This document shows, one piece after another, positions 1,882 to 46,413 of a stretch of DNA of 64,000 nt. Origin of the DNA: Pseudomonadota bacterium. GTDB lineage: Bacteria > Pseudomonadota > Alphaproteobacteria > RF32 > CAG-239. The stretch lies in assembly GCA_018362935.1 (NCBI GenBank), contig JAHALQ010000005.1, positions 62,490 through 126,489 of the forward strand. Direction: 5' to 3'. The position numbers and the translations under genes are program-made. The first letter of the stretch is position 1, and each line of letters begins with the position of its first letter. The notes under the pieces were generated by a model. It was not told the origin of the DNA. It was given only the letters and a program-made list of their open reading frames with translations, and did no database searches.

Positions 1882-3342
1882 TTACCCGATTTTGGAATCT
1901 TTGGTAAGCTGTTCGCCGGTCTGGGCATAAGCGTCAACCGCGCGCGCCGCTTTCTTGGACAGGGCGATACAGCCCGGACCGGAAACACAGCCGCCTTCGC
2001 AGCACATAACTTCCAGCATATTGTTCTCACCGCCTTTGGCCGCATAGCGCTTAAGCAGTTTGATGTTCTCCTTGGTCAGGCCGTCAACCTTTTCGGGACG
2101 GATGTCAATGCTGTCGCCGACCAGACTCGCCACCGCTCCGGCCACGCCGCCGGTAACCGGAAACTGGCGTCCCTGGGCATGCGAAAGCTTACCGAACGGA
2201 ACTTCTTCGCATTCGTCAACATTAATACCGGAAGCAACCAGCATCGCGCCAAGTTCTTCGAAAGTCAGGACATAATCAACGTTCGGATCCCACTCCGCCT
2301 CGGCGCGTTTGGCCAGACACGGGCCGACAAACACGGCAACGCATTCGGGACATTCCTGTTTAACCAGCTCCGCCGTATAATACATCGGCGTTTTGGTGTC
2401 CGAAACAAACGGGCGGATTTCCGGAATATGCACCTGTGCCGCACGGAAATAGGCCGGACAGCAGGAAGTTGTCATAAAAGGCTGACCATGCTCCATTCTC
2501 TCGACAAACTCGGCGGCTTCTTTCTGCGTGGTAATATCGGCGCCGACGGCAACTTCAATCACATCGGCAAAACCGAATTTTTTCAAAGCGCCGGCCAGAT
2601 TATTGAGCGAACCGGGAAATTGCCCGGCAATCGCCGGCGCCAGCATGGCCACGACTTTTTTGCCGGTTTCTTTAATCTCGCGCATAACGTCAATCATTTG
2701 CGAACGCTCGACAATGGCGCCGAACGGGCACGATGCCAGACATTTGCCGCAGGAAATACATTTTTCGGTATCAATATGTTCTTTGCCGAATTCGTCCTTG
2801 GTTATCGCGCCGACCGGACAGGCCTCTTCGCACGGAACCGGAATTTTAACGACGGAATGATACGGGCAGACCTCAAAACACTTGCCGCAGTTGACGCATT
2901 TGTCCGGATCAATATGGGCGCGCCCTTTGACAATCGAGATGGCTTCTTTCGGGCAGTTCAGGCGGCAGGGCTGCGCAAAACAGCCGCGGCAGACATCGGT
3001 AATCACATACTGCGATTTCACACAGGCCGAACAGGCAATATCAATGACCGACAGTTTGTTTTTCGGCGCCTCTTTGCGTTCAAGCGCCTGTTCGCCGTAT
3101 TCTTTGAGACTGGTCAGCTCGTCCTGCTCTTCTTCCGGACAATGCCCCAGACCGGCCATACAGCGGTACTTGAGCACCGCGCGGTCTTTATAAATACAGC
3201 AGCGGCTGGGCTGCATTTCTTTGGGGCGCAGTTCCAGCGGGATTCTGTCCGCATTGGCAAATTTATCATGCAAATAGCTTTCGGCCAGTTTAATCAAAAT
3301 TTTGGTACGCATTAAGTTCGCGTTATTCTTAGGTATCAGCAT
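1882..3342 (-). CDS. hydA: [FeFe] hydrogenase, catalytic-type H-cluster domain with two N-terminal 4Fe-4S ferredoxin motifs
   Basis: Ferredoxin motifs CVNCGKCFEVCP and CISCGKCLASCP; H-cluster motifs L1 FMTTSCCPAYF (proton-relay Cys retained), L2 VGPCLAKRAE, L3 EVMCCEGGCVSGPGC; last gene of the Fd-hydS-PP2C-Fd-hydA operon. Confidence 0.85.
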   Translation of the reverse strand: MLIPKNNANLMRTKILIKLAESYLHDKFANADRIPLELRPKEMQPSRCCIYKDRAVLKYRCMAGLGHCPEEEQDELTSLKEYGEQALERKEAPKNKLSVIDIACSACVKSQYVITDVCRGCFAQPCRLNCPKEAISIVKGRAHIDPDKCVNCGKCFEVCPYHSVVKIPVPCEEACPVGAITKDEFGKEHIDTEKCISCGKCLASCPFGAIVERSQMIDVMREIKETGKKVVAMLAPAIAGQFPGSLNNLAGALKKFGFADVIEVAVGADITTQKEAAEFVERMEHGQPFMTTSCCPAYFRAAQVHIPEIRPFVSDTKTPMYYTAELVKQECPECVAVFVGPCLAKRAEAEWDPNVDYVLTFEELGAMLVASGINVDECEEVPFGKLSHAQGRQFPVTGGVAGAVASLVGDSIDIRPEKVDGLTKENIKLLKRYAAKGGENNMLEVMCCEGGCVSGPGCIALSKKAARAVDAYAQTGEQLTKDSKIG

Positions 3343-3371
3343 TTATTTCAAACTCTTCAGTATCTATATCA

Positions 3372-3641
3372 TTAACAGCTTTTTTTAATTTCTTCGCGGA
3401 TTTTATTGACGACCTTTTCATAGGTGGCTTCTTCAACCAGTTCGTCATTGACAAAAACAAACGGACCGTTGTTATATTTTGTTTTAACGTCCTTGCATAA
3501 ATTCATGCACCGCTCTTCAATAATTTCGATATGATCTGCAATATCAGCCGGCGCATTAAATTCCAATGACTGGATTTGGGCGGCTCCCATAACAAAACAG
3601 GAAGTGCCGACGCAGATTCTAACTCTAACTTTGTTTGCCAT
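3372..3641 (-). CDS. thioredoxin-like [2Fe-2S] ferredoxin (NuoE/HydC-fold small protein)
   Basis: 89 aa with C-x4-C (CVGTSC) and C-x3-C (CMNLC) separated by about 40 aa; RBS AAAGGA 9 nt upstream. Confidence 0.65.
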   Translation of the reverse strand: MANKVRVRICVGTSCFVMGAAQIQSLEFNAPADIADHIEIIEERCMNLCKDVKTKYNNGPFVFVNDELVEEATYEKVVNKIREEIKKSC

Positions 3642-3658
3642 CTCTCAAAAGTCCTTTT

Positions 3659-4834
3659 CTATATGTATTTGACACTAATTTCTTTCAGGTATTTGTCCTG
3701 CAAAATCCTGAATATCTTTTTCACAATATTGCGTCGGATTTCAAGCTCCATCGGCAAATTGGGATCCTGGTGGGCGATGTTGATTTTGGTACCGACCACA
3801 AAATCAATCTTGTCGCTGTCCAACAGCAGTTTGGCCAGCCGGGTCGCCCCGTTGTTTTTATCGGCATCAATGCCTTCTTTTAGCATACGGTACACATCAG
3901 TCAAGGTTAAAATTCCTTCCGTGACCAAATCAATGCCTTCCATTGTTGAACACATCGGGATTTTTTCGTCAAAAGACGTCTTGTCAATCTCGCATTTCAG
4001 ACAAAGTTCACGCTCGATAATATTGGCCGTTGTGCCGCCGCAGATTGCCGTCTTGCCGTCATAAGCAGAAACCAATTCGGCAAATTCGGCGTCGCGTTTT
4101 TCGTCAAACGGAGGGCCGGTCAAAACCAGCAGCTTGCGCGGCTTACGGAAATACAGCACGGTGCAGCTGATATCGTCGCCGGCTTTCTTGTCAACTTCTT
4201 TGCTTAAGGCTTCCTGCACAATCGCATGCGCCAAATCGCTGGCAGAAATTGTCGGGTTCCTGCGGATTTTCTCCAGCACGAAGTCCAGACAACCCTGCCG
4301 CTGCCAGCCCAGCGGATAAAGCCGGTTGCCCAGCCCGGCCTGCGTCACCCCGTCCGACATCAGAATAATCCGGTCTTCTTCCTGATTCGTCAGCTGCGAT
4401 ATATTAATTGTCCGGTCTTTCCACTTTTCGGAATATATCTCGCGGTAACGTACATTGACGGCCTTGTCGTCGCGGATAAACATAAAAGGCGGGTTGTCCA
4501 TCTCGAATATGCGCGTTTTGCCGTCGAGCTGTGTATCCACAACCGAAAAAGTCGCATAGCTGATTTTACGAATCTGACAGACCGGCAGCGCGTCCATCAT
4601 AACTTCCGACGAATGCATCAGTTCCATATTGCTTTCGACAAACTTCATTGCCATCCGCGTTGTCATCGATGACAGGATATTGGCTTTGACGCCGCTGCCC
4701 AGCCCATCGGACAGTATGGAAATAATCCGGCGCTCTTCGGGGATCTTTTTGGAATACACCGTGTCGCCGAAACAATCTTCGCCGTGTTTCTGCTGCTGCG
4801 CCGAACCGATTTCGATAAATAAAGAGTCGCTCAT
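3659..4834 (-). CDS. PP2C-family (SpoIIE/RsbU-like) serine phosphatase with a ~175-aa C-terminal domain of unknown function
   Basis: N-terminal PP2C motifs (GEDCFGD ... ILMSDGV ... GDDISCTVLYF); the C-terminal part (CGGTTANIIERELCLKCE...MCSTMEGIDLV) matches no domain I recognise; 3 nt downstream of hydS. Confidence 0.7.
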   Translation of the reverse strand: MSDSLFIEIGSAQQQKHGEDCFGDTVYSKKIPEERRIISILSDGLGSGVKANILSSMTTRMAMKFVESNMELMHSSEVMMDALPVCQIRKISYATFSVVDTQLDGKTRIFEMDNPPFMFIRDDKAVNVRYREIYSEKWKDRTINISQLTNQEEDRIILMSDGVTQAGLGNRLYPLGWQRQGCLDFVLEKIRRNPTISASDLAHAIVQEALSKEVDKKAGDDISCTVLYFRKPRKLLVLTGPPFDEKRDAEFAELVSAYDGKTAICGGTTANIIERELCLKCEIDKTSFDEKIPMCSTMEGIDLVTEGILTLTDVYRMLKEGIDADKNNGATRLAKLLLDSDKIDFVVGTKINIAHQDPNLPMELEIRRNIVKKIFRILQDKYLKEISVKYI

Positions 4835-4837
4835 CGG

Positions 4838-6619
4838 CTAAAACTTCCTCTCGGTCGAATTGGTACGGATTTTAACCCCCTCGTTCTCGCGATCGTTCAC
4901 GGCATAGTCTTTGGCGATAGAACGCAAAAGCACTTCCGTTTCAGCCATGTGCTCGCCCAGAGTGCATGCAATCTGCTGAACAGTCGCCAGATTCTTATGG
5001 ATAACTTCCTTTGCCCTTTCGGCAATCTGCTCTTTGTGCATCTCGGCGTTGGTCACATCTTCGATAATGCCGCCGACGCTTTGTTTCTTATCGATATTAA
5101 AGACCACCACGTCAAACATCTTGTCTTCGTGGCGGACATGCTCTTTGTGAATATCCTGTTCCAAATCCAGCGACGCCGTAAACAGATTGGTAAAGCTGAC
5201 AAAATCGCGCAGATTGGCACCGTACAGATTGTTGTAGTCATAAATTTCGGCATGTTCTTCCTCGTTCCAGAACGTATCGCGGAACTGGTCGTTGTATTCC
5301 ATGATATTGAGCTTGGCATCGGCAATTACAATCGGCGACGGAATGCAGCGGATAAGCGCGTTGGCTTTGCGCTGCGCCTGATGTTTCATGTGCGAAACGC
5401 ACATTTCGGGCTCGGCCTTTCCTTCCAGCAACGCGCAGGCAAAATTGCGGCAGGTGTTATAACCGCAGCCGCCGCAGTTCAACTCGTCCTCAATGCTGTA
5501 TTTGCCGATTCTCGTCAGTACTTTGCGAATGTCGCTTTCCTCAAATTTGCGGTCCAAGCCGTTAATATCCTGCGACTTATAACTTTCGGCTATATTGTAC
5601 TGCGGTTTGCGTGAAGCGGCTTCGTCAAACGACGCGTTTTTGAGGATTTCCATTCTCTTTTGCAGGCCGGAAGCCTTGTTGCTGGTACAGGGGCCGGACA
5701 CGCAGCCGCCGTAACAGGCCAGGCATTCCAGAAAAGTCGGCCGGTTCAGGTTGTCGATGTCAATATGCGTCAGCTCGTCCTGCAAACTGTATATGCCGGT
5801 AATCTGCGCCATATAAACGTCTTTTGACAGATTATGCGGTTTGATGGTTTCAATCATACCGCCCTCAATCGGATAAGCGCTGCCTTCTTTAGCATTATCC
5901 AGGGCAAAAACGTCAAAGACGCCGGGCACCAATTCTTCCGGATTAATGTTTTCATCTTTCAGCCACTGGCGCAAATCCTCAAAACTCAGAGCCAAAGACA
6001 ACAGCTCCGGATGCCTGTCGGCTTCAAACTTTTTGGCAATGCACGGGCCGATAAAAACGGTTTCAACATTCTGTCCGAACTTTTCTTTAAGCATCCGGCA
6101 GTGAGCCAGCAGCGGCGAAGCCACCTGCGCCAGATACGGCGTCAGTTCCGGCAGATATTTCTCAACATATTCAACCACCGCCGGGCAGGCTGTGGAAATC
6201 ATCAGCCGGTTTTCGTTTCTGGCAACGGCATCTTTGAGCTGGCGGACGGTTTCGGCAGTCACTTCCTGCGCGCCGAGCGCCGTTTCGCTCACGCCTTTAA
6301 TCCCCAGCCGGCGTATTGCCGCTACAATCTGCTCCTTGGTATATTCGGGAAATTCCGTCACCCATGACGGCGCCAGCGACACATAAATCTCGCGATTGGA
6401 AGAAACCAGATATTTGGCGCGCGCCAAATCATTGCGCGGCTGCTTGGCGCTGGCCGGGCAGACTTCGTAGCAAATGCCGCAGGCGATGCACAGCTCCGGC
6501 ACAATCATCGCCGAATTGTCCTCAATCTTAATTGCCTTGACCGGGCAGCGGCGGACGCATTTATAGCAGTCCTGGCAATCGTTCTTAACGGTATGCAGCG
6601 GGAAGTCGCGATTAGACAT
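4838..6619 (-). CDS. hydS: putative sensory [FeFe] hydrogenase HydS (H-cluster domain + Cx2Cx4Cx16C + PAS)
   Basis: N-terminal 2x4Fe-4S motif (CYKCVRRCP, CIACGICYEVCP); L1 ISTACPAVV with Ala in place of the proton-relay Cys; L2 GPCIAKKFE; L3 ECLACYGGCVSGPC; then CGGCGYNTC-x16-C and a PAS-like domain; start overlaps the upstream ferredoxin stop (TAATG). Confidence 0.85.
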   Translation of the reverse strand: MSNRDFPLHTVKNDCQDCYKCVRRCPVKAIKIEDNSAMIVPELCIACGICYEVCPASAKQPRNDLARAKYLVSSNREIYVSLAPSWVTEFPEYTKEQIVAAIRRLGIKGVSETALGAQEVTAETVRQLKDAVARNENRLMISTACPAVVEYVEKYLPELTPYLAQVASPLLAHCRMLKEKFGQNVETVFIGPCIAKKFEADRHPELLSLALSFEDLRQWLKDENINPEELVPGVFDVFALDNAKEGSAYPIEGGMIETIKPHNLSKDVYMAQITGIYSLQDELTHIDIDNLNRPTFLECLACYGGCVSGPCTSNKASGLQKRMEILKNASFDEAASRKPQYNIAESYKSQDINGLDRKFEESDIRKVLTRIGKYSIEDELNCGGCGYNTCRNFACALLEGKAEPEMCVSHMKHQAQRKANALIRCIPSPIVIADAKLNIMEYNDQFRDTFWNEEEHAEIYDYNNLYGANLRDFVSFTNLFTASLDLEQDIHKEHVRHEDKMFDVVVFNIDKKQSVGGIIEDVTNAEMHKEQIAERAKEVIHKNLATVQQIACTLGEHMAETEVLLRSIAKDYAVNDRENEGVKIRTNSTERKF

Positions 6620-6888
6620 TACTTATCTCCGGAGTTCGAATTTTGGTTATTCTGATAGTGTTTTTCCAAAATATCGTACAGCATGCCGCTTTCGATATTA
6701 TTATACTCCACGCCGTCAATCGTAATATTCGGCCCTTTGGAGCATTGGTCACAGCAGCGCAGCCCGGTCAGTTCGACCTCGGCTGACAGGTTATGGCTTT
6801 CAAGAAAATTTTGGATTACCTGAAGATTTTTCGAATTTCCGCGTGCAAAACAGGAACTGCCCATACAAACTTTGATTGTCGAAGCCAT
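6619..6888 (-). CDS. thioredoxin-like [2Fe-2S] ferredoxin
   Basis: C-x4-C (CMGSSC) and CC-x2-C (CCDQC); start set at MASTIKV because GGAGG lies 6 nt upstream, and the track ORF start at 6912 falls inside the RBS; 89 aa, same length as the paralog at 3372-3641. Confidence 0.65.
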   Translation of the reverse strand: MASTIKVCMGSSCFARGNSKNLQVIQNFLESHNLSAEVELTGLRCCDQCSKGPNITIDGVEYNNIESGMLYDILEKHYQNNQNSNSGDK

Positions 6889-6920
6889 TTTTTCCTCCGG
6901 CTGATAAAACACTTGTAAAA

Positions 6921-6949: not shown

Positions 6950-7001
6950 CAGAAATAGTTAACGTCCGAAACATATTTTTACTTAGGAAAACATTGGTAA
7001 T

Positions 7002-7034
7002 TTGCTTGATATAAGCATAAAGCAAGATTATGAT
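7002..7034 (+). promoter_or_regulatory. candidate promoter (TTGATA-17-TATGAT) for the first GGDEF-EAL gene, overlapping inverted repeat TTGCTT-N12-AAGCAA
   Basis: -35 at 7006-7011, -10 at 7029-7034; inverted-repeat arms at 7002-7007 and 7020-7025, a possible operator in the divergent intergenic region. Confidence 0.3.
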
Positions 7035-7066: not shown

Positions 7067-8347
7067 ATGGCACAAGCAAACAGATTTGTAGCTGAAAAAA
7101 ATTTACTGGACACGTTGGATCGCATTGCCCGCAATCAGGCGGCATATTCGGTTTTGTATGTCAGTTTGTCCAAACTCAAGCCCAAAAACCGCCATCCCGC
7201 CTTTATCAAAATCATTGCCAAACTGTTTGATGATCTGGTCGGTGCCGCCGAAGGTTCAATGTTTATCCTCAACAACGGCGATTTTGCCATTCTCGGCAAA
7301 AACATTACTGCTGAAATTGTCGCCGATGCGGTCGACAAACTGCGCAAAGGCCTTGCGTCAGACCCGATTTTGTTCAACAGCAACATCTCAGAATTTGCGC
7401 ACCTGTATAACTTTCCCGAAGATTTCTCAACTTTGTACGAGTATATCAGACTGCAGATTGACAATGCCAGGCAGCCCGATTTTTCAAACCTTAAATATCC
7501 TGTCGAAGCTTCGCAGATGGACGGCGTGCTGGCGCACCTGGACGCCATTAACGTTGCCGAAATCATCAAGCATCAGAGCGTCATCCGCGTTGAAAAAGCC
7601 AATCAGTTCAAAGTACTGTTTCAGGAATTCTTTGTCGCTGTCAAAGACCTTAGCACCCTGTATGACAAAAACATCGACCTGACCGCCAACAAATGGCTTT
7701 TTCTTTATCTGACGCAGGCGCTTGATAAAAAAACAATTGCTTCGTTTCAGGCTGCCGAAATAAAAAACTGGCCGGCGTGCATAAGCCTTAACCTCCATTT
7801 ATCATCCGTATTCACGACCGAATTCGACAATCTGGCCGGCAGCCTTTTCGCCCCGCAGCAGCAGATTATTGCCGAAGTCCAGATGATGGACGTATTCAAC
7901 CGGCTCGAAAGTTACTTTGAAGCCAGAGAAAAACTGCATGCGCAGGGAAACCGGATTCTTATAGACGGGCTGATTCCCGAAACTTTATCCCTGATAGACA
8001 TAAACCGCCTGCAGCCTGACTTGATTAAACTGTTCTGGAATCCGATGATGGAATATGACACGAACAATCAGGAGCTGCGTGACATCATCAGCCAATTCGG
8101 CAGCGATCGGATTATTCTGGCCAAATGCACCGACGACAAAGCGCTGCGCTGGGGAATTTCATACGGTATTCGCGCTTTTCAGGGGCCGTATGCCGATAAT
8201 CTGGAAACTGCCGTTATCCGCTCGCAATGCCCGGCCGCAGCCGCATGCACAGCGGCTGACTGCCTCAGGCGCCGCCGCCTGATTACCGGCGCCGCGCGCA
8301 GCCAGTGCAAACATATCGAACACCTGGAAAAACTGCTGGGACAATAA
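7067..8347 (+). CDS. degenerate GGDEF-EAL protein (both domains apparently catalytically inactive)
   Basis: N-terminal GGDEF-like fold with GGDEF replaced by NNGDF and the DxDxFK region by SLSKLK; C-terminal EAL-like fold with DDFGTG replaced by IDGLIP, KLFW in place of KID, AKCTDD in place of AEGVE, and a FQGPY tail. Confidence 0.55.
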   Translation: MAQANRFVAEKNLLDTLDRIARNQAAYSVLYVSLSKLKPKNRHPAFIKIIAKLFDDLVGAAEGSMFILNNGDFAILGKNITAEIVADAVDKLRKGLASDPILFNSNISEFAHLYNFPEDFSTLYEYIRLQIDNARQPDFSNLKYPVEASQMDGVLAHLDAINVAEIIKHQSVIRVEKANQFKVLFQEFFVAVKDLSTLYDKNIDLTANKWLFLYLTQALDKKTIASFQAAEIKNWPACISLNLHLSSVFTTEFDNLAGSLFAPQQQIIAEVQMMDVFNRLESYFEAREKLHAQGNRILIDGLIPETLSLIDINRLQPDLIKLFWNPMMEYDTNNQELRDIISQFGSDRIILAKCTDDKALRWGISYGIRAFQGPYADNLETAVIRSQCPAAAACTAADCLRRRRLITGAARSQCKHIEHLEKLLGQ

Positions 8348-8348
8348 C

Positions 8349-9608
8349 ATGGAAGCCAAAACCGAAACCCGCACAATCCGAACCGATATAGCCGTCGCCG
8401 AATATCTGCGCAAGCTCGACGCGGCGGTCGGCGAATATGACGCGATTTATATCAACGTTTCCAAACTTGAAAGCAAAAACATCCGCGATTCCCACCGGCA
8501 GGAACTGGCCGACACTTTTGCAGCTTTCGTATCCAAAGCGATGGCGCGTTATTTTTGGTTCGCCAATGAAGACGTCATCGTCATTTACAACCGCCGCATC
8601 AAAGACGAAATTTTATCTTGCCTGGTCAAAATCCGTTTTATGTTTCACGACGACGAACTGCTCAAAAATTCCGACAATCTGGAAGCAATCGGCTTTGTCA
8701 AATTTTATAACATGGCCGATGACAAAAGAGAATTTTACCATCTTGTCAGCAAATTGAGCCACCAGCAAAACCCGGTCAAACTGCAGACAAAGAAGACCAA
8801 TCCCTTTGTTGTCAACACAATAGCTTCCTCTGCGCCCGCCAAACAGAAAAAACCGCTCACGCCGGACATTTTGGCGCGCGTTCAAAAAATACTGTCCGTC
8901 GCAGATTTTTCCAGCTTTATCCGCCGTCAGGCAATCTGCGCGGTCATCGGAAAATCGGCGCCGCTGCGTGTCTTTGAAGAAGTTTATGTGTCGATTCCAG
9001 ATTTGCGCGAAATGCTGCTTCCCGACATTGACCTGGTCGCCAATCCGTGGCTGTTTTTGTCGCTGAGCGAAACGCTGGACAAACGCGTTCTGGAAACGAT
9101 CGGACGCCATGACGACGGCTCGTTGATTGGAAATTTCAGCGTCAACATCAACGTATCGACGATTTTGTCAGATGAATTTCTGGCTTTCGACGAAAGTATC
9201 AGCGCTTCAATGCGCCCGAGCATCATTCTGGAGCTTCAGCTCGTAGATATTTTCAGCGACATCAAATCTTTTGTTCTGGCCAAAACTTTTGCCCAGGCGC
9301 GCGGATACAAAATCTGCATAGACGGCATCTCGGTTGACAAACTTAAATATCTTAATCGCGCCAATCTCAATTGCGATTTGATGAAGATTATCTGGCACCC
9401 GAGCTTTATGGACGTGATAAACGAAGACAAACATTTTATGGACTATGTTAACAAGGCAGAACGCGCCAAAATGATTCTCTGCCGGATTGACGACCCCTCC
9501 GCAATTGAAGTCGGCAACTCTCTGGGCATTAATCTTTATCAGGGTCGATATGTGCAAAGGCTCTTAAATGCCGTTGCGCCCAAAGTTCCTTTTACGCTTC
9601 GCAAGTAA
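8349..9608 (+). CDS. degenerate GGDEF-EAL protein, tandem paralog of 7067-8347
   Basis: Same architecture and colinear motifs (ANPWLFLSLSETLDK; ICIDGISVDKLKYLNR...KIIW; ILCRIDDPSAIEVGNSLGINLYQGRY); start lies 1 nt after the upstream stop. Confidence 0.55.
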   Translation: MEAKTETRTIRTDIAVAEYLRKLDAAVGEYDAIYINVSKLESKNIRDSHRQELADTFAAFVSKAMARYFWFANEDVIVIYNRRIKDEILSCLVKIRFMFHDDELLKNSDNLEAIGFVKFYNMADDKREFYHLVSKLSHQQNPVKLQTKKTNPFVVNTIASSAPAKQKKPLTPDILARVQKILSVADFSSFIRRQAICAVIGKSAPLRVFEEVYVSIPDLREMLLPDIDLVANPWLFLSLSETLDKRVLETIGRHDDGSLIGNFSVNINVSTILSDEFLAFDESISASMRPSIILELQLVDIFSDIKSFVLAKTFAQARGYKICIDGISVDKLKYLNRANLNCDLMKIIWHPSFMDVINEDKHFMDYVNKAERAKMILCRIDDPSAIEVGNSLGINLYQGRYVQRLLNAVAPKVPFTLRK

Positions 9609-9644
9609 ATCCCCTCTGCAAGCCCGTATTTTGTGCAATAAACA

Positions 9645-9673
9645 AAAGCTCCCGCCTGAACGGGAGCTTTCTT
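9645..9673. terminator. bidirectional intrinsic terminator
   Basis: AAAGCTCCCG-cctgaa-CGGGAGCTTT hairpin followed by CTT, between convergent genes. Confidence 0.45.
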
Positions 9674-9954: not shown

Positions 9955-10344
9955 ATGTTTGATTTGGAATGGTATCAAAGCCTCGGCAAACCTGCCCTGA
10001 CTCCGCCGCCGGAAGCGTTTCAGACCGTATGGCCGGTGCTCTATATTCTGATGGCCGTATCTTTTTATTTTTATCTGAAACAAACGCCCAAAATACAACG
10101 GCCGCTTGGCATCATCTTTTTCTGCCTGCAATTATTCCTGAATTTTCTGTGGAGTCCCGTCTTTTTCGGCATGCAGCGCATTGGCAGCGCACTGTTGGTT
10201 TTATCGCTGCTGATTGTGACCGTCGCCTGTACGGTCTGGATATTCAACAAAACATCACGCCTTGCCGCCGGGCTGCTGTTACCGTATTTTGTCTGGATTC
10301 TTTTTGCCTGGTATCTCAATTTTGAAATCTGGCGGCTAAATTAA
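9955..10344 (+). CDS. tspO: TspO/MBR family tryptophan-rich sensory protein, N-terminally short
   Basis: WYxxLxKPxxxPP, W-rich transmembrane segments, C-terminal LNFEIWRLN; only 129 aa, a TAA 2 codons upstream rules out an extension, so TM1 is absent. Confidence 0.6.
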   Translation: MFDLEWYQSLGKPALTPPPEAFQTVWPVLYILMAVSFYFYLKQTPKIQRPLGIIFFCLQLFLNFLWSPVFFGMQRIGSALLVLSLLIVTVACTVWIFNKTSRLAAGLLLPYFVWILFAWYLNFEIWRLN

Positions 10345-10462: not shown

Positions 10463-11602
10463 TTAATCTTTGCCGATATTAATATTACGGTTAATATTGA
10501 CGGAAAGGATAATGCCGAAAGCCGCCATAACCGAAAGGATAACAGTGCCGCCGTAGGATATTAACGGCAGGGGAACGCCGACAACCGGAATCAGGCCGAG
10601 CACCATCGCCATATTAATCATGACATAAAGAAAAAAGTTTGTCGCCAGGCCGACCGCCGCAAGTTTGCCGAAATAGCTGGTCGTACGCAAAGCGAAAGCA
10701 TAGCTGTAAGCCAGAATCAAAATATTGACAAGAACCACAAAAATAGCGCCAATCATGCCGAACTCTTCCGAAAGCATCGTAAAAATAAAATCGGTGTGCT
10801 TTTCCGGCAGAAAGTTAAGGTGGCTCTGCGTCCCCTTCAAAAAGCCTTTGCCGAATACGCCGCCCGACCCCAATGCGATTTTAGACTGGATAATGTGATA
10901 ACCGGCACCGAGCGGATCGCGCTCCGGATCCAAAAATGTCAGCACGCGGTTCTGCTGATAATCATGCAGCAGATTCCACGCAATCGGCAGAGAGATTATT
11001 CCGCCGAGCAAAACAATTCCGAATTTCCACAATTGCACGCCGACGGCAAAAAACATGGCGCCCGCCGTAAAGACCAGCATTAAGGCCGTTCCCAAATCCG
11101 GCTGTGTCATAACCAGCAGCGACGGAACCAATACCATCAGCAGCGGCACCATAATTCCGCGCATGGTTTCGATATTTTGCAGCGACGTGCCGTGGAAATA
11201 GCGCGCCAAAGCCAGAACCAAAGCAATTTTCATTAATTCCGACGGCTGCAGCTTTATAAAACCGAGGTTAATCCAGCGCTGCGCGCCCATACCGACATGG
11301 CCGCCGACTTCAACAATAATTAAAAGCAGCAATACCCCGAAATAAAAGACATAAGCATAACGCATAAAATACTTAACATCGACCAAGGCCAGCGTAATCA
11401 TGACAACCAGCCCGATGCCGAAACGCAGCAGCTGATTCAATGCCCAGGGATGCCAGCTGCCGTTCGCCGCCGAATACAGCATAGTTACGCCGACTGCGGC
11501 CAAAATAAAGATAAACATGATATAGGCAAAACTTAAACTCTGAATTTTTTCTTTCAGGGTCAAAGACTGGCTTTTAAAACTTGTTTCATAAAATTTATAC
11601 AT
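10463..11602 (-). CDS. mrdB: peptidoglycan glycosyltransferase RodA (SEDS family)
   Basis: FtsW/RodA/SpoVE family multi-pass membrane protein directly downstream of mrdA. Confidence 0.9.
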   Translation of the reverse strand: MYKFYETSFKSQSLTLKEKIQSLSFAYIMFIFILAAVGVTMLYSAANGSWHPWALNQLLRFGIGLVVMITLALVDVKYFMRYAYVFYFGVLLLLIIVEVGGHVGMGAQRWINLGFIKLQPSELMKIALVLALARYFHGTSLQNIETMRGIMVPLLMVLVPSLLVMTQPDLGTALMLVFTAGAMFFAVGVQLWKFGIVLLGGIISLPIAWNLLHDYQQNRVLTFLDPERDPLGAGYHIIQSKIALGSGGVFGKGFLKGTQSHLNFLPEKHTDFIFTMLSEEFGMIGAIFVVLVNILILAYSYAFALRTTSYFGKLAAVGLATNFFLYVMINMAMVLGLIPVVGVPLPLISYGGTVILSVMAAFGIILSVNINRNINIGKD

Positions 11603-11605
11603 TTG

Positions 11606-13341
11606 TTATTCCACCGGTTTTGGGCTGGCATCAAGCTTGAGAGCTTCCAGCAATAACTTTCCGCCGATCGGCGCCGCCACAGCCGAACCGCTGCGCCCGT
11701 GCTCGACCAGAACCGCAACGGCATAGCGCGGATTATTATGCGGCGCATATCCGACAAACAAAGCATGGTTGCGATATTTCCACGGCAGATCCTCCTGCCG
11801 GATAATTCCGGTCTGGCGCTCTTTCATGCTGATGCGCCGAACCTGGGTCGTTCCGGTCTTGCCCGCCATTTTAAGGCCGTTAAAATCAAATCTCGACCCC
11901 AGAGCCGTTCCGCCCGGAATATTAACCACGTCAAACATGCCCTGCTTGACAAGGGAAATATTGCCCGAACTGATATTCATCTTCTCAAGTTTAGACTTTT
12001 CGCTGACTTTGCTGAACGTCGGAACCACCGCATAGCCGCCGTTGGCAATTCGCGCCGTCATCGTTGCCAATTGTATCGGCGTCGTCAGTATATACCCCTG
12101 CCCGATGCCGGAAATCAAAGATTCGCCGAGTTGCCACGGTTCCCCGAAACGGCGGCGTTTCCAATCCGTATCGGGAATCAAGCCTTCTTTTTCATTTTCC
12201 AGACCGACGTTGATTTTCTGCCCGAGACCAAAACGCCGCGCCATCTCGGCAATTTTGTTGATTCCCACTTTCTGCGCCGTTTCATAAAAGAAAATATCGC
12301 ATGAATGTTGCAAAGCCTGAACAACGTCCAGATAACCATGCCCTTCTTTTTTCCAGCAGTGAAAAGCATGATCGCCCAAAAACATTTTTCCCGCGCAAAA
12401 AGAACGCGTCTGCGGCGTAATCGCTCCGCTTTCCAACGCGGCCAAAGCCACGACCATTTTGAATGTCGAACCCGGCGAATACTGCCCGGCGAGCACTTTG
12501 TTCATCATCGGCTTATGCTCGTTTTGATTAAGTTCTGCCCACTCTTTGGCACTGACACCCTGCGTAATCATATTGGGGTCATAAGCCGGCGTCGACGCAA
12601 ACACCAATATCTCGCCGCTGTATATGTCAACCATGACCGCGGCGCCGGTTTCTTCGCCAAACAGCTCATAGGCTTTGCTTTGCAGGCGCGCATCAATGCT
12701 CAGTTCTATCTTTTCGCCCGGCACGCCGTCAACCCGTTCTATTTCTTTCATAACGCGGCCGAAAGCATTAACTTCAAGCTTGAGGTTGCCGCCTTTGCCG
12801 CGCAGCTTCTTTTCATAGAGCTTTTCAATGCCGGCCTTGCCGATTTTGAATCCGGGAACTTCCAGCAGCGGATCGTCCTTGACCTTGACATCCTGCTCCG
12901 ACACCGAAGAAACATAGCCGATGACATGCGCCATTTTTTCACCGTAAGGATAATACCTTGTCAATCCTTCATCGATGATAATCCCCGGCAAATCCGGCGC
13001 ATTAAGCTGAATTTGCGCGACTTCGTCCCAATTCAGATTGTCTTTGATTTTTATCGGAACAAAGCTCCGATTCTTTTTCAAATCTTTTTTTATTTTTTCC
13101 TCTTCGGCTTCCGACAAGGGCATAATCCGCTTAAAGGCATCCAGCGTTTCCTGCACGTTGGTCGTCTGTTCGGCCACAATCATTGCTTGGAAATTCTGAC
13201 GGTTGGTTGCCAGCATCTCGCCGTATATACCTGCAGATAATATAAGCGGGCAATAATGATAATCAGCAGCACAATCTGCCCCGCCGCCAACACCAGCGAC
13301 CGACCGATCAGAACTTTTCCCTTATCATTATCCCGGTTCAT
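11606..13341 (-). CDS. mrdA: penicillin-binding protein 2 (MrdA) with an apparent 1-nt frameshift after the N-terminal membrane anchor
   Basis: Transpeptidase motifs (STFK, SxN, KTGT) lie in the frame of the track ORF 11606-13216; the anchor (MNRDNDKGKVLIGRSLVLAAGQIVLLIIIIARLYYLQVYT, ATG at 13341 overlapping the mreD stop) is in the +1 frame and stops after ..WQPTVRISKQ; the junction is around 13219-13228. Confidence 0.8.
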
Positions 13342-13859
13342 TATTCTTCATCCTGTATCAGCGTATTTTGCACAAAAGCCAGCAGCAGTGAAACCAGCGG
13401 ATAGCAAAATACAGTTATCAGATAGCTGAAAAACAGCACGCCGAGCGGCAAAAAGCGGCTGTAATAAACCGACACCACCAACCAGCGCAGCAAAATCGTT
13501 CCCAAAGACAGGGCGACAAAGCCGTACCACAAAACCACGAAAGGTTTTGCCGTCAGAAATTTTGACGCGGCATTGGTCAGAACATACAAAACCAGCATGG
13601 CAAAAATACTTGAACCCATCGGCGCGGCGCTGATAACATCATCAACCAGCCCCAGGCAGCAAATAGACCATAAATTAAACAAATCCGGACGGTGCACCAG
13701 CCAAAAATAGCCGCAAATCAATCCGATAGCCGGATGAATGGTGTTAAGAAACAAAAAATTCAGCGGCAGATAAGACAGCAAAACCAGAAAAACCGAAGAC
13801 AACAGCGGCAGCAAACGCTGAAACAGGGAATTGATGTTTTCATCCAAATCATCACTCAT
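13341..13859 (-). CDS. mreD: rod shape-determining protein MreD
   Basis: Small polytopic membrane protein in the mreBCD-mrdAB cluster; overlaps mreC by 8 nt. Confidence 0.8.
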   Translation of the reverse strand: MSDDLDENINSLFQRLLPLLSSVFLVLLSYLPLNFLFLNTIHPAIGLICGYFWLVHRPDLFNLWSICCLGLVDDVISAAPMGSSIFAMLVLYVLTNAASKFLTAKPFVVLWYGFVALSLGTILLRWLVVSVYYSRFLPLGVLFFSYLITVFCYPLVSLLLAFVQNTLIQDEE

Positions 13860-14730
13860 CGGTATCCCCGTTTTTAAGATTCAGCTGGCTGTCCCTGAGC
13901 AGCCCCTCAAGACCGTAATTGATTAGCTTGATGTACTCAAGCTGCTCCAGCGAGCTGAACGGTTTAACCGCAATTTCGTTTTTTCCGGCGCTGACAACTT
14001 TGCCGATGGGCAGCCCGGCCGGAAAAACGCCGGCCACGCCTGAAGTCACAATCCGGTCGCCGATATTAATCCCGGCATCCAGCGGCGTAAAAATCAGTTT
14101 TGGCAGCGACGTATTGTCGCCCGACAAAATTCCGCGTACCCGCGAACTTTCGACAATTACCGGAATTTTTGAGTTGATATCGGTTATCAGCAAAATCCGC
14201 GCATAGCTGTCGCCGGCGCGGTCAACCCGGCCGACTACCCCTTTGTCCGACATCGCCACTTGTCCCTTGCGCGCTCCTGCATCCCCGACATAGGCAATCA
14301 TCGAATGCGAAAAAGCGTCGCCTTCTTCGGCAATGACGCGGGCGGTAATAAAATCAGATTTCGGCGGCGTCACATAATTGAGCAAATCGGTCAACAGCCG
14401 GTTTTCGATTTCCAGAGATTTAAACTTGTCATACAAAAGGTTGAGTTTGCGGTTTTCTTCTTTCAGGCGTTGGTTGTCGGCATGAATTTCCTTCAAATCG
14501 CTGAAATAATCATAAGCATGTGCAATCAGCTTCGCCGGGATAACCAGCACGTCTATCACGGGGGAAACAACATCCGTCGCCACGTTGGAAGTTTTTTCTA
14601 TCAGCACGGTATCGGTTTTGTTCACCAACATCAAAGCAAACGCAGTCAAAAACAAAATTACCAGCGCAAATTTCTTGGCCAGTAATCTAATGTGGCTTAA
14701 ATGTAAAAATAAACTTCTGCGCCGTTTCAT
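13852..14730 (-). CDS. mreC: rod shape-determining protein MreC
   Basis: N-terminal transmembrane helix, coiled coil and beta domains; position between mreB and mreD. Confidence 0.85.
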   Translation of the reverse strand: MKRRRSLFLHLSHIRLLAKKFALVILFLTAFALMLVNKTDTVLIEKTSNVATDVVSPVIDVLVIPAKLIAHAYDYFSDLKEIHADNQRLKEENRKLNLLYDKFKSLEIENRLLTDLLNYVTPPKSDFITARVIAEEGDAFSHSMIAYVGDAGARKGQVAMSDKGVVGRVDRAGDSYARILLITDINSKIPVIVESSRVRGILSGDNTSLPKLIFTPLDAGINIGDRIVTSGVAGVFPAGLPIGKVVSAGKNEIAVKPFSSLEQLEYIKLINYGLEGLLRDSQLNLKNGDTDE

Positions 14731-14781
14731 AAATCAAAAACTTTCGTGATAATTCACTCCAAGAAGTTTGGCCGGCGTGTG

Positions 14782-14851
14782 TAAATAATAAGAATTAAGG
14801 GCGGCAACACCGGAGTTTACAAAGACGTAAATGAGGATGTTGCCGACCCGC
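14782..14851 (-). terminator. complex palindromic intrinsic terminator, member 3 of a three-copy family (downstream of mreB)
   Basis: GGGCGGCAACAccggag[TTTAC..GTAAA]tgaggaTGTTGCCGaCCCG; on the minus strand it is followed by TTAATTCTTATTATTTA; homologous to 22681-22747 and 44333-44402 with compensatory stem changes. Confidence 0.5.
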
Positions 14852-14889
14852 AAATTCTGTATTAGTTACCAGCCGGACAAGCTTCTCGA

Positions 14890-15945
<1,056 letters not shown>

Positions 15946-28383: not shown

Positions 28384-30741
28384 CTATTTTTTAGTAAAGG
28401 GATTTTCAACTTTTGACGTGCTGTCAACGGCAAAAGCCTTTTCTTCCAGCCACCATTCGTCCGACGCCGGTTTTGTTCCGCGTCCCCGTTTTTCATTATC
28501 ACCGTGCCATTTGTCAGAAATGTCGCTGGCCATAACGCTGTTAATGTCGGTTTCTTCCGGCATTTTGCTTTTCGCATCGTCATAAGCGGTATTCATAAAT
28601 TGTTTCAGTTCGGTTTCATCTTCAATGCCCAAATCCATGTCATTGAGGACTTCGTCGACCGTCGGAGTCCCCGCATCCTGAATATTGCGGCGGCTGATAA
28701 TCTGCGCATCCAAACCGTAACAAGCTTCTTTTATTGCCTTTTCCTTAAATTTTTCGTCTTTGATATAATGGATATTGCGCGCCAAAATCGGGCGGTTATA
28801 ATACCCTTCTGCCAAAACGACCTGATAATCTCTGGTTTTAATGCGCAAATTGCGTTTTGTTTCAAAATCTTTGGCCAGACGATAAAAATAATTGGCGTCG
28901 GCAAAACCTCTTTTATAACGCAGCGACCGCCGGTTATCCAACGAAATCTGCACCGACTTGGTTGCAAAAAGTGCCAGTTTTTTCAGTTGGCGGCTCATTT
29001 TTTTATTATCCTCCGCCAGAACGATTTTATAAGTGGAATTTGAAACGATTTCTTCAAGCGTTTCTTTGGTATAAGTATTTTCCACGCTGTTCAGGCTGTT
29101 GCACAACAGCAAAAAGGACGTGCGCATCGACGGCCCTTTGGCGACCGCTTCGGACAGGGTCCGCACTTTTAGCATCTGCCCGACATCATCAAGCACCACC
29201 AGAAGCGGAAACGCGCCTTTTGCCTGTCCCTCGATGATGCCCTGCTCCAAAATCAGTTCCATGAACATCCGGCTGACAAATTTGGCGCTTTTGGTGTTGG
29301 CGACCACATACACCGTCACCGGTTCCGGCCGGCCGGTTTCGTTGTTTTTGATACCGCGAAACTCCGACACGTCAAAATCGTTCATACCGGTTTTTTCGCG
29401 AATAACCTGGTTAATGAAACTTTTAAGCGGTTTAACCATACAGACAAAGACAATTTGCCGCTGCTGGCGGGACAAATACAAAAATTGTTCCAACCCGCGG
29501 ATAACATTATTGCCGTAATTAAACAAACCGGCTTCAACCACCAGGGTTTCAAGCCATTTTCGCCAATCGGCGCGATCCCCTTCGTCTTTAGAAGTCAGAT
29601 AATTCTGCAGCAGCCAGTCTGTCAGCATGCCCAGACACAAATCCTTCCCTTTCCATGAATCCGGAATACCGTCCCAGCTGCCGATCGGCACATAATCGTC
29701 CGGGCTGAATTCAGGCGAACGTTTCAGTTTTTCAATCGCTTTGTCCACACACGCACGCGGCATCAACAGATAATAGCTGAGCAAAACCTCACGCTCATCT
29801 TTCTTCAAAGAGTTTTTTTCCAGAATCTTATCCAGAAAATAATCATTGGCCATAGCCTGCGAAACTTTTGCCGTCAAAAATGCCAACATCGCGTTCATAA
29901 CATTTTCGCACAGCCAATACCAATAATTGCTGTCTTCATGCTCTTCGTCGGACAAAACCAGATAAGACGCGATTTTCTTAAGATAATCATCGCGTTTTTG
30001 TCCCTTTGGCGGCAGTCTGTCGATACTGAGCGGATTCCACTTAGGATAAAAAATCCCCTTGTCGGTATCATCGGCCAAATCCCAGTTAAAATAAAAAACC
30101 TTGCCGATTTCGGCACGGTGCCCGCTGGTATGGCGTGCCAAAGTACCGGCATTGTCAACCGCCAAAACGCTGACGTTGTCTGACCGCAAAATCGAAGGAA
30201 TGGCGACGGACGAGGTTTTTCCGCTGCCGGTTTCGCCGATGCAAAGTATATTTGAAGGGCGGCTGACACCCAGGACATAACTCTGAAAACGCCCCAGCAC
30301 CAGCAATATGCCTTTATGCAGACCCATTTTTTCAATATCGCCCAATTTAGCAAAATGAGTATTGAGAATATACCAGAAGTTAAAGGAATAAGAGCTTTTC
30401 ATAAAAGCAAAATAAAGCGCAAACAGCGACACCAGCGGCGCGCTCAGCGGCAGCAGCAGTATCCAGTTCAGGCTGTACGTCCGGAAACCGCGAACCAAAG
30501 CCTCCCACCAGCTTGCATAAACGGCAAAAATATGAAACGGGTTATCCCAAATGCCGAAATCGCCGTGCGTAAATAAATGCGCGTGCGCGCTGCCGTCCCG
30601 AAAAACAAACCAGTGCACCGAACCAAACAGGAAGACCGAAAAAAACATAAAGAACACAAACGTAAAAGCCAGCACTAAAATAATATTCAGGAGCGCTTTC
30701 TTTGGGCTGACTTCGTCTTCAAGTGTTAAATCTGTGGTCAT
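28384..30741 (-). CDS. type IV secretion/conjugation coupling protein (TraD/TrwB/DotL-like T4CP), 785 aa
   Basis: Two N-terminal transmembrane helices; Walker A GETGSGKTS with downstream LAVDNAG (the TrwB/TraD-type GKS/T P-loop rather than the VirD4 GKG form); Walker B-like LLVVLDDVGQM; long acidic C-terminal tail. Confidence 0.7.
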   Translation of the reverse strand: MTTDLTLEDEVSPKKALLNIILVLAFTFVFFMFFSVFLFGSVHWFVFRDGSAHAHLFTHGDFGIWDNPFHIFAVYASWWEALVRGFRTYSLNWILLLPLSAPLVSLFALYFAFMKSSYSFNFWYILNTHFAKLGDIEKMGLHKGILLVLGRFQSYVLGVSRPSNILCIGETGSGKTSSVAIPSILRSDNVSVLAVDNAGTLARHTSGHRAEIGKVFYFNWDLADDTDKGIFYPKWNPLSIDRLPPKGQKRDDYLKKIASYLVLSDEEHEDSNYWYWLCENVMNAMLAFLTAKVSQAMANDYFLDKILEKNSLKKDEREVLLSYYLLMPRACVDKAIEKLKRSPEFSPDDYVPIGSWDGIPDSWKGKDLCLGMLTDWLLQNYLTSKDEGDRADWRKWLETLVVEAGLFNYGNNVIRGLEQFLYLSRQQRQIVFVCMVKPLKSFINQVIREKTGMNDFDVSEFRGIKNNETGRPEPVTVYVVANTKSAKFVSRMFMELILEQGIIEGQAKGAFPLLVVLDDVGQMLKVRTLSEAVAKGPSMRTSFLLLCNSLNSVENTYTKETLEEIVSNSTYKIVLAEDNKKMSRQLKKLALFATKSVQISLDNRRSLRYKRGFADANYFYRLAKDFETKRNLRIKTRDYQVVLAEGYYNRPILARNIHYIKDEKFKEKAIKEACYGLDAQIISRRNIQDAGTPTVDEVLNDMDLGIEDETELKQFMNTAYDDAKSKMPEETDINSVMASDISDKWHGDNEKRGRGTKPASDEWWLEEKAFAVDSTSKVENPFTKK

Positions 30742-30746
30742 TGATG

Positions 30747-31886: not shown

Positions 31887-31968
31887 AAGCCAACCGTCCT
31901 TATATTCTTGCAACTTAACCTATATCATAAATTATCTTTTGCCATTTTACAAACAAATTATGACAAGC

Positions 31969-33729: not shown

Positions 33730-33842
33730 GCGTTTATTCCCATATGTAACAATATGTAACAAGAATTTAAAAGCTTTTTACCAAATTTCTTGTTATATGT
33801 AAACCAAAATTAAATCACGTGAACTATTTAGGGGTAAAACTT

Positions 33843-46324: not shown

Positions 46325-46413
46325 ATTGGTTCCTCAAAACAGGTTAACTGACTTTCTATATATAAGTTTTTTATTTGCAAAACTCAAGCACGAATGTTCA
46401 CCCGCCCCCAGCC

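Follow-up and report, generated by a model that had tools for sequence, protein, structure and literature searches.

The window, a stretch of 64,000 nucleotides from an uncultured gut alphaproteobacterium, holds two adjacent plus-strand genes, A (7067-8347) and B (8349-9608), whose open reading frames translate into proteins of 426 and 419 residues; the ATG of B begins 1 nt after the TAA stop codon of A (8345-8347). Both proteins comprise a degenerate GGDEF-like domain and an EAL-like domain, to which A adds a C-terminal tail with four cysteines that B lacks, and B carries a disordered linker at residues 141-164. In line with the initial annotation, which had described a tandem of ~420-aa paralogs, A and B proved to be paralogous over their full lengths (27% identity over 381 residues, E 3e-37, BLASTP). 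Decay into pseudogenes was ruled out, since 78 of 80 species-level loci preserve both reading frames undamaged and invariant residues are numerous.

Divergent from the pair, as that annotation also had it, lies a minus-strand hydrogenase-sensor operon (1882-6912), which forms the genomic context. By Pfam and NCBIfam, and counting away from A, it encodes a 2Fe-2S ferredoxin (6619-6912), a HydS-like [FeFe] hydrogenase homolog with an FeS domain (4838-6619), a PP2C/SpoIIE phosphatase (3659-4834), a small 2Fe-2S ferredoxin (3372-3641) and a group B1 [FeFe] hydrogenase, HydA (1882-3342); PDB sequence matches to [FeFe] hydrogenases agree with these assignments. The operon resembles the group C sensory HydS systems in that a divergent H-domain protein bearing an extra FeS domain is accompanied by a PP2C/SpoIIE phosphatase as well as by a catalytic [FeFe] hydrogenase, a layout that matches the phosphatase-linked sensory hydrogenases. 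In contrast to the group C systems, the HydS-like protein of the window yielded no PAS domain with Pfam. The HydS of Thermotoga maritima has been described as sensory (PMC10055695).

The spacer between the two units measures 154 bp to the listed GTG start and ~177 bp to an ATG preceded by GGAGG; the initial annotation had given 180 bp for this intergenic region. Within it, a promoter-like site directed towards A-B (7006-7034, plus strand; TTGATA, 17-nt spacer, TATGAT) was found by a consensus scan whose site counts in this region are not above those of shuffles; the clade consensus is CTTGCT-N17-TATGAT, and both hexamers are kept in an alignment of 21 intergenic regions. A similar -35 region stands upstream of A where the preceding gene encodes RodA or a histidine kinase, and the putative promoter of A is kept in every synteny class, whatever gene lies upstream. 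We do not favour placing the pair within rodA or histidine-kinase operons, since a promoter-like element precedes A there too, although read-through is possible. At the other end, a G+C-rich hairpin with a 12-bp stem (9644-9671), picked up by a terminator scan 36 nt after the B stop codon, has its better T-run on the minus strand and likely marks the end of the A-B unit. Judging by the conserved promoter, the 1-nt junction and the hairpin after B, A-B appears to form a unit of its own.

The inverted repeat TTGCTT-N12-AAGCAA, which the initial annotation had pointed out, is indeed present (7002-7025, extendable to 9-nt arms with 89% complementarity), but it consists mostly of the -35 box of A's promoter: its left arm overlaps this box and is kept in loci without hyd genes, and its right arm varies among relatives with no compensating changes. 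On these grounds, and because the A+T-rich spacer is rich in repeats of this kind (five with arms of 6 nt or longer in 191 bp, this one included), we rejected a role for it as a common operator of A-B and the hyd operon.

Domain architecture and the EAL-like pocket

The proposed colinearity with GGDEF-EAL proteins is supported at the level of fold. The AlphaFold model of A (pLDDT 83.4) matched, over its full length, the GGDEF-EAL tandems of PA0861, MorA, LapD, PA0575 and DosP (420-435 columns, E ~1e-11, Foldseek), although the sequence signal is weak. A search of the PDB with a profile of the family alignment gave a match to STN1, which contradicts both fold searches and was dismissed as spurious; otherwise it returned only weak EAL matches. 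No other Pfam domain was found in A or B, NCBIfam matched neither the full proteins nor their N-terminal halves, and the secondary structures show no extra N-terminal module, both proteins starting directly with the GGDEF-like domain.

The pair had been described as devoid of sensor and transmembrane modules. This holds for transmembrane and classical sensor domains, but a conserved Cys4 tail on A had been overlooked. The tail (residues 388-426; 8228-8344, plus strand) carries C388-x5-C394-x4-C399-x14-C414 together with an RRRR run. Its motif is kept between gut-clade and Roseospira-type proteins that are elsewhere only ~25% identical, and is absent from B and from the single-copy members of the family; searched on its own, the tail had no match in Pfam. 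It is a possible metal or redox module.

Comparison of the N-terminal halves of A and B with the Pfam GGDEF model (PF00990), a check proposed at the outset, yielded no match at E<=10, and none of 116 family members matched at E<=0.01; the GGDEF (nucleotidyl-cyclase-like) fold is nevertheless present in both proteins. When the domain of A (residues 8-133; 7088-7465, plus strand) was aligned with four E. coli GGDEF domains by hhalign, the motif itself was found replaced by NNGDF (residues 69-73), exactly the equivalence given in the initial annotation, and in B by ANEDV. The DxD metal site has become SxS, a 6-residue deletion removes the guanine-binding IND(T)xG stretch, and no RxxD I-site was found in the domain. 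On this mapping, a low-confidence profile alignment (hhalign probability 73%) backed by a constant distance between the motifs and by agreement in secondary structure, the GGDEF-like domain appears to retain none of the determinants of cyclase activity or of binding at the I-site.

The EAL-like domain of A (residues ~148-387; 7508-8227, plus strand) has the EAL barrel fold. Against Pfam EAL (PF00563), the other model proposed for comparison, A and B score 26.9 and 22.6 bits, both below the gathering cut-off of 31.3, but 109 of the 116 family members match at E<=0.01 and some pass the cut-off (e.g., P0389, 34.9 bits). Residues were mapped to RbdA and five E. coli EAL domains in a low-confidence profile alignment (hhalign probability 44%), which motif spacing and secondary structure again back, and conservation was counted over 143 family representatives with <50% mutual identity. 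E187, N242, D300, Q372 and G373 are kept in all 143, K321 in 142 and E270 in 141. The ligands of the first metal site are thereby retained (E187, the Glu of EAL; N242, the Asn; E270, of ExxE; D300, the first DDFG Asp), and those of the second are all lost, A having G301, F323 and A352 in place of the second DDFG Asp, the KxD Asp and the EGVE Glu, respectively; these roles are taken from PA3825-EAL (PMC5301497).

In its first metal site, catalytic Lys and QG motif, the family agrees with the active EAL phosphodiesterases PdeL/YahA, PdeH, RocR, PA3825 and BlrP1, yet it departs from them at the second-site positions, with Gly at 301 (127/143), a hydrophobic residue at 323 and Cys, Ala or Ser at 352. 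The position that follows the lost EGVE Glu, 353, is Arg in 125 representatives, His in 12 and Lys in 4; A itself deviates here, with K353 for the family's Arg and then Thr for the family's Asp. The second E of ExxE is missing as well, and so is the EALxR Arg, in whose place stands Ser (112/143) or Ala (A191 in A). In canonical EAL domains, this Arg contacts c-di-GMP.

The original label of 'doubly degenerate' proteins is accordingly correct in that the signature motifs of both domains are lost, but not in regard to the first metal site, the Lys and the QG of the EAL-like domain. Two of the motif equivalences, IDGLIP and KCTDD, were each one residue off: DGLIPE better corresponds to DDFGTG, and A352-K353-C354-T355 to EGVE. 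On this mapping, the EAL-like domain is not simply dead, half of its active site being retained.

Family distribution and the hydrogenase neighbourhood

The family to which A and B belong comprises 1,744 clusters at 50% identity, 717 of them at E<=1e-30. Homologs of A number 359, and the 120 among the matches listed are 51-99% identical to it and ~425 aa long. Where a member carries a source name, its annotation goes no further than 'hypothetical' or 'EAL domain-containing' protein, and we found nothing relevant in the literature on the family or on degenerate GGDEF-EAL proteins in Alphaproteobacteria/Rhodospirillales. It is apparently a large, uncharacterised alphaproteobacterial family of soluble, ~420-aa proteins.

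Of 80 related gut loci, 78 have A and B in tandem, separated by 5-100 nt, and the tandem also occurs in Roseospira and locus L086. Reciprocal BLAST places the duplication that gave rise to them before the split between the gut clade and Roseospira. Outside the gut clade, the genes often neighbour a Metallophos (ApaH/PrpE-like) phosphoesterase and HldE or GmhB-like nucleotide-sugar genes. No canonical GGDEF or EAL gene was detected in the window or in 87 loci with small HMMs derived from E. coli proteins; this DNA is only a small part of any genome, too little to argue that c-di-GMP synthesis is lacking.

Conservation of the hydrogenase pairing among relatives, also suggested as a check, was found in part: a hydrogenase gene lies at most 4 kb upstream of the pair in 67 of 78 informative related loci, but a HydS-type sensor operon (HydS/PP2C genes) in only 31. 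The neighbour in 36 loci is just a catalytic HydA-like gene, and 11 lack any hydrogenase within 10 kb and have mreBCD-pbp2-rodA directly upstream. A hybrid histidine kinase gene stands between the pair and the hydrogenase genes in 32 of the hydrogenase-linked loci, and the divergent, adjacent arrangement is seen in the window and 20 related loci. As for other Alphaproteobacteria, including Roseospira and Kiloniella, none of seven loci carries a hydrogenase within the 6-8 kb of retrieved flank. In both sets, the pair thus does occur in relatives with no hydrogenase nearby, an outcome that the initial annotation had named as speaking against it. Hydrogenase adjacency is a feature of the gut lineage and not of the family.

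Candidate functions of the A-B pair

Among the known c-di-GMP receptors, degenerate GGDEF-EAL proteins make up the main class, and few of these are known to have been worked out. We best read A-B as an uncharacterised variant of this known kind, and tentatively favour a heteromeric nucleotide receptor, probably for c-di-GMP, which would use one metal and be neither a phosphodiesterase nor a cyclase. Since EAL domains usually dimerise, A and B, as two subunits of an old paralog pair, would work as a heterodimer, an arrangement suggested by gene order and the coupled junction. The EAL pocket would bind a nucleotide, most probably c-di-GMP, along with one divalent cation, and would not hydrolyse it at a useful rate; such binding without useful hydrolysis would imply a role as receptor or adaptor rather than as phosphodiesterase or cyclase. 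The tail of A, the diverged partner, probably binds metal (Zn or Fe-S); it may provide an input of redox or metal state, or else the surface through which the output is contacted.

A receptor or scaffold role like that of FimX and LapD was the reading first put forward. Both of these proteins have the same tandem of degenerate GGDEF and degenerate EAL and are the closest structural matches of A-B, at a sequence identity of only 11-15%, but their degeneracy is of a different type. In the A-B family, the whole first metal site and the Lys are kept invariant, the proteins form a two-gene pair, and A bears the Cys4 tail. A and B further lack the REC and PAS domains of FimX and the transmembrane, periplasmic and HAMP modules of LapD. 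Moreover, c-di-GMP binding by the EAL domains of FimX and LapD is metal-free (PMC5301497, Table 2). A metal site and a catalytic Lys that are both strictly invariant would be expected of an enzyme more than of the degenerate receptors known so far, which counts against the receptor reading, as does the loss of the EALxR Arg.

A rival reading is a divergent enzyme, in which a one-metal EAL-like barrel, with Arg/His 353 perhaps replacing the second metal, would hydrolyse a phosphodiester, be it in c-di-GMP, in pGpG, in some further cyclic di- or oligonucleotide, or in a substrate other than a nucleotide. Near-invariance of the first-site ligands, the catalytic Lys and the QG is a pattern typical of catalytic sites, and the prevalence of Arg, His and Lys at position 353, the metal-free binding by FimX and LapD, and the phosphoesterase and nucleotide-sugar genes adjoining the family outside the gut clade point in the same direction. 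However, A has departed from the family at and after position 353, and mutating the EGVE Glu or the second DDFG Asp reportedly abolishes the activity of RocR and YahA. With all three second-site ligands gone, and this site being occupied in active EAL complexes (PMC5301497), we regard an enzyme as unlikely. We give considerably less credence to a ligand-independent adaptor in the manner of YdiV/STM1697 or BluF, which would bind a partner protein, or nucleic acid via the basic tail of A. The Arg-rich tail and the want of a recognisable sensor domain in A and in B would suit such a role, but pocket residues for nucleotide and metal that are invariant across the family are hard to explain if the pocket is unused. 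YdiV/STM1697 and BluF (YcgF) are EAL-like proteins that work by binding other proteins; they have lost these pocket residues and are not known to have a GGDEF-like domain, whereas the A-B family has both.

Compatible with any of these biochemical readings (receptor, enzyme or adaptor) is a coupling of A-B to the HydS-PP2C H2-sensing operon, either as its output or through co-regulation from the shared intergenic region. Divergent adjacency in the window and 20 related loci, and the hydrogenase genes close upstream in most of the informative loci, suggest such a coupling, and the Cys4 tail could in principle sense redox state. Nevertheless, HydS/PP2C genes accompany fewer than half of the related loci, the others having a HydA-like gene only or no hydrogenase; the histidine kinase gene often intervenes; A-B pairs with the Cys tail on A occur in Roseospira and L086 without a hydrogenase in the retrieved flank; and the promoter of A appears kept in all synteny classes while the inverted repeat is not conserved. 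All 80 related loci, moreover, represent one clade, in which shared gene order may be simple inheritance. No published link of HydS systems or hydrogenases to GGDEF-EAL proteins or c-di-GMP was found in the literature, and the regulatory link raised in the initial annotation gained no support beyond adjacency. A coupling to this operon seems improbable to us, and the idea of a specific H2-sensing link is weak.

It is also rather doubtful, if conceivable, that A and B constitute a distinct alphaproteobacterial signalling module: a heterodimer with a single-metal EAL pocket, in which the conserved Arg replaces the second metal, and with a Cys4 metal or Fe-S centre on A. Such a module would make the binding or slow turnover of a nucleotide, perhaps one other than c-di-GMP, depend on the redox or metal state of the cell. 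In the anaerobic gut lineage, it would have been recruited beside hydrogenase and hybrid histidine kinase genes.

The A-B family displays a pattern that is absent from FimX, LapD and YdiV, namely one EAL metal site strictly kept and the other cleanly removed, an old A/B gene pair, and a conserved Cys4 Arg-rich tail on A. As the family is found in cultured hosts (Roseospira, Kiloniella), it is open to experiment, and its study could reveal if an EAL pocket with one metal works as receptor or as enzyme, with a bearing on signalling in abundant, uncultured gut Alphaproteobacteria.

A translationally abutting pair of paralogs

The two genes under study, A (7067-8347, + strand, 426 aa) and B (8349-9608, + strand, 419 aa), are both intact and are separated by a single base: A ends in GGA CAA TAA, followed by C and then by the ATG of B. 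BLASTP aligned their products as full-length paralogs (27% identity over 381 residues, E 3e-37). Five genes lie upstream of A on the minus strand. The one nearest to A (6619-6912) encodes a thioredoxin-like 2Fe-2S ferredoxin; beyond it come a HydS-like homolog of [FeFe] hydrogenases that has an additional FeS domain (4838-6619), a phosphatase of the PP2C/SpoIIE type (3659-4834), another small ferredoxin of the 2Fe-2S class (3372-3641) and a group B1 monomeric [FeFe] hydrogenase, HydA (1882-3342; TIGR04105, 529.6 bits, above cut-off). B is followed by a 12-bp G+C-rich hairpin (9644-9671) and by TspO (9955-10344). Further on, a minus-strand cluster (10463-15930) comprises rodA, pbp2, a 172-aa ORF that takes the place of mreD but matched nothing in Pfam, mreC and mreB. 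These ORF calls and annotated neighbours bear out the coordinates and gene layout of the initial annotation.

By sequence, A and B are barely recognisable as GGDEF-EAL proteins. Against Pfam EAL, A reached 26.9 bits and B 22.6 bits, both below the 31.3 cut-off, Pfam GGDEF did not match their N-terminal halves even at E<=10, and NCBIfam matched neither protein. Across 116 family members, Pfam EAL matched 109, some of them above the cut-off, and Pfam GGDEF matched none. The AlphaFold models of A and B, built from the family alignments, were confident, with pLDDT values of 83.4 and 82.7, respectively. When the family profile was run against 1.84 billion representative proteins, 1,744 clusters were recovered at E<=1e-3, 717 of them at E<=1e-30; the best 150 of the 1,744 were nearly all 400-465 aa long and matched end to end. 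Intact and strongly conserved, the two paralogs abut translationally and combine a GGDEF-like fold with an EAL-like one.

Several other features of the window were recorded. The H-domain of the HydS-like protein is divergent (TIGR04105, 180 bits vs a cut-off of 450); the protein also has a PF04060 FeS domain, and Pfam detected no PAS domain in its last ~180 residues; a sensory role is plausible, judging from the neighbouring PP2C gene. A 270-aa ORF (1233-2045, -) overlapping the 3' end of hydA by ~160 nt had no Pfam match and, by tblastn over the related loci, no conserved counterpart; it is probably spurious, or its true start gives a shorter product. The region 28384-33762 (-) holds genes for a TraG/VirD4-like coupling protein of type IV secretion (785 aa) and a 388-aa protein with pentapeptide repeats, and an ORF of 597 aa without a Pfam match; it adjoins a stretch of raised G+C (0.528 at 26-28 kb) and may be a conjugative element remnant. 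Opposite-strand ORFs of ~620 aa each occupy the same DNA at 44459-46324 (-) and 44480-46351 (+).

Genomic context and upstream region

The scan for relatives, at one genome per species, returned 180, and the best 80 of these were analysed, all of them uncultured gut or rumen Alphaproteobacteria (with record names such as CAG:495, Candidatus Scatocola and 'uncultured Azospirillum'). At 78 of these 80 loci A is followed by B, with gaps of 5-100 nt. A divergent ferredoxin-HydS-PP2C-ferredoxin-HydA operon lies upstream of A in the window's adjacent layout at 20 loci, and with a hybrid histidine kinase gene intervening on A's strand at 11. Fifteen loci have an adjacent HydA-like gene only (60-66% identical), 21 have the kinase and a HydA-like gene, 11 have no hydrogenase within 10 kb, mreB-mreC-mreD-pbp2-rodA running into A instead, and two are uninformative. 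A hydrogenase neighbour is present in 67 of the 78 informative loci, the sensor operon in only 31. Seven loci from other Alphaproteobacteria (L081-L087) showed no hydrogenase gene in the 6-8 kb flank retrieved per side. The regulatory link to the hydrogenase genes that the initial annotation had raised is not supported beyond adjacency: these seven and 11 of the 78 carry the pair or a family gene without a nearby hydrogenase, and such a neighbour is frequent in this one clade.

At 33 of the 80 loci, the gene immediately upstream of A, and on its strand, encodes the hybrid histidine kinase (SBP_bac_3, HisKA, HATPase_c and REC domains; 380-690 aa) and ends 50-130 bp short of A (L024:5342-7417 (+), L028:8804-9943 (+), L050:3443-5503 (+) and 30 others). 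The window lacks this kinase gene, which may be a truer functional partner of A/B than the hydrogenase genes. The complete rod-shape cluster (10463-15930, -) converges on the pair in the window; in 11 related genomes it instead leads straight into A, the end of rodA lying 80-95 bp away, and this differing placement implies a history of inversion or insertion around the pair. HldE and GmhB-like HAD phosphatases belong to ADP-heptose synthesis. Among L081-L087 (Kiloniella, Roseospira and metagenomic), the neighbours include HldE (4/7), a GmhB-like HAD phosphatase (1/7) and a Metallophos phosphoesterase of 250-280 aa with weak ApaH/PrpE-like matches (4/7), which could point to a tie with nucleotide or envelope metabolism, or reflect inherited gene order.

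A consensus scan placed a promoter-like site, TTGATA-17-TATGAT, upstream of A at 7006-7034, and both hexamers are kept across 21 aligned intergenic regions (consensus CTTGCT and TATGAT). A similar -35 region is found upstream of A also where rodA or the kinase gene is the upstream neighbour, so A-B has its own predicted promoter. The inverted repeat TTGCTT-N12-AAGCAA (7002-7025), noted earlier in the shared intergenic region, does exist and is unique in the window. However, its left arm coincides with the -35 region, no compensating changes accompany the variation of its right arm among relatives, and the 191-bp A+T-rich stretch holds five inverted repeats with arms of 6 nt or more, this one included; nothing supports it as an operator common to A-B and the hyd operon. 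A conserved motif lies at ~6975-7000, ~10 nt upstream of the -35 box of A (TTAGGAAAA in the window's group, GTTAGCAAAAAAGTAAT in others). It occupies the equivalent position in most related loci, independent of the upstream gene, and could be an UP element or activator site.

Residues kept and lost

Five EAL and four GGDEF reference domains, translated from E. coli K-12 PdeH, PdeK, PdeL, DosP, PdeR and DosC, were compared with the family by hhalign, and an RbdA alignment was also used for the EAL-like domain (residue numbers refer to A). The GGDEF-like domain aligned with a probability of 72.7% over 121 columns, and NNGDF (69-73) fell exactly opposite GGDEF of the four E. coli domains, as had been proposed. 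The DxD metal site is replaced by S33-x-S35, the IND(T)xG guanine-binding stretch is removed by a 6-residue deletion, and the RxxD I-site is absent from this domain. As judged from these alignments, A and B lack the cyclase determinants.

The EAL-like domain keeps Q170 (Q of QP), E187 (E of EAL), N242 (the Asn), E270 (first E of ExxE), D300 (first D of DDFG), D318 and K321 (D..K of DxxK) and Q372-G373 (QG). Five motif residues are lost: A191 replaces the R of EALxR, M273 the second E of ExxE, G301 the second D of DDFG, F323 the D of KxD and A352 the first E of EGVE. The last assignment follows from spacing, EGVE standing exactly 20 residues ahead of QG in each of the five E. coli EAL domains; the loss of EGVE read earlier as KCTDD is thus upheld, but the mapping moves by one residue, to A352-K353-C354-T355. 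In PA3825-EAL, the ligands of the first metal are equivalent to E187, N242, E270 and D300, and those of the second to G301, F323 and A352 (PMC5301497). Given these roles, the first metal site is intact and the second is deleted; the Lys is intact too. The description "doubly degenerate" therefore fits the GGDEF-like domain and only half of the EAL-like domain, where the first metal site, K321 and Q372-G373 are kept.

When A and B are aligned with 141 representatives (<50% identity; n=143 in all), E187, D220, N242, D300, Q372 and G373 are invariant, and K321 (142), E270 (141), D275 (140), Q170 (140) and D99 (138) nearly so; D72, the Asp of NNGDF, is kept in 141. Gly occupies position 301 in 127; at position 353, Arg is found in 125, His in 12 and Lys in 4, and at position 355 there is an Asp or a Glu in 133. 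That half an active site is so strictly conserved speaks for a ligand or metal pocket in use and against a dead scaffold. It also sets the family apart from FimX and LapD, both given as metal-free c-di-GMP binders (PMC5301497, Table 2).

The cysteine tail and a predicted receptor pair

The C-terminal tail of A (388-426; window 8228-8344, +) holds C388-x5-C394-x4-C399-x14-C414 around an RRRR run, and searched alone it matched no Pfam family. Its motif, GCPx4Cx4C(V/L)xRRRx3Gx2Rx2C, recurs in A-type proteins of Roseospira goensis, R. navarrensis and related metagenomic proteins, which outside the tail are only ~25% identical to A. The tail is found on the A-type paralog only; in R. navarrensis and at locus L086, the tail-bearing gene precedes an overlapping or abutting tail-less paralog. 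In reciprocal BLAST, A scored 184 and 198 bits against Roseospira-type A and 115 and 120 against B types, whereas B scored 205 and 204 bits against B types and 84 and 145 against Roseospira-type A. The A/B duplication therefore predates the split between the gut clade and Roseospira. Single-copy members (Kiloniella and several metagenomic contigs) are without the tail and nearer to B. The general form of the family is B, from which its partner A differs by divergence and by the extra module.

We infer that A and B form a heterodimer that would bind a nucleotide (most probably c-di-GMP) together with a single metal ion, would not hydrolyse it efficiently, and would so act as a receptor or adaptor; the Cys4 tail would bind metal and provide an input or contact surface. 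Zn, an Fe-S cluster and nucleic acid are candidate ligands of the tail. No cyclase gene was found in the window and the 87 related loci, DNA that is far too small a sample to judge c-di-GMP synthesis. The main alternative is an enzyme with altered chemistry, which would account for the enzyme-like invariance of the pocket residues and the conserved Arg at position 353. That same invariance makes a ligand-free adaptor less likely. A functional tie to HydS-PP2C in this lineage, suggested by adjacency only, is possible.

Our literature search found no paper on the family; most members have no database name, and the rest are called 'hypothetical protein' or 'EAL domain-containing protein'. The family belongs to a known kind, the degenerate GGDEF-EAL proteins. 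Within it, the predicted one-metal EAL pocket, the Pfam-undetectable GGDEF-like domain, the A/B pairing and the Cys4 tail mark it, on sequence grounds, as a distinct, uncharacterised variant.
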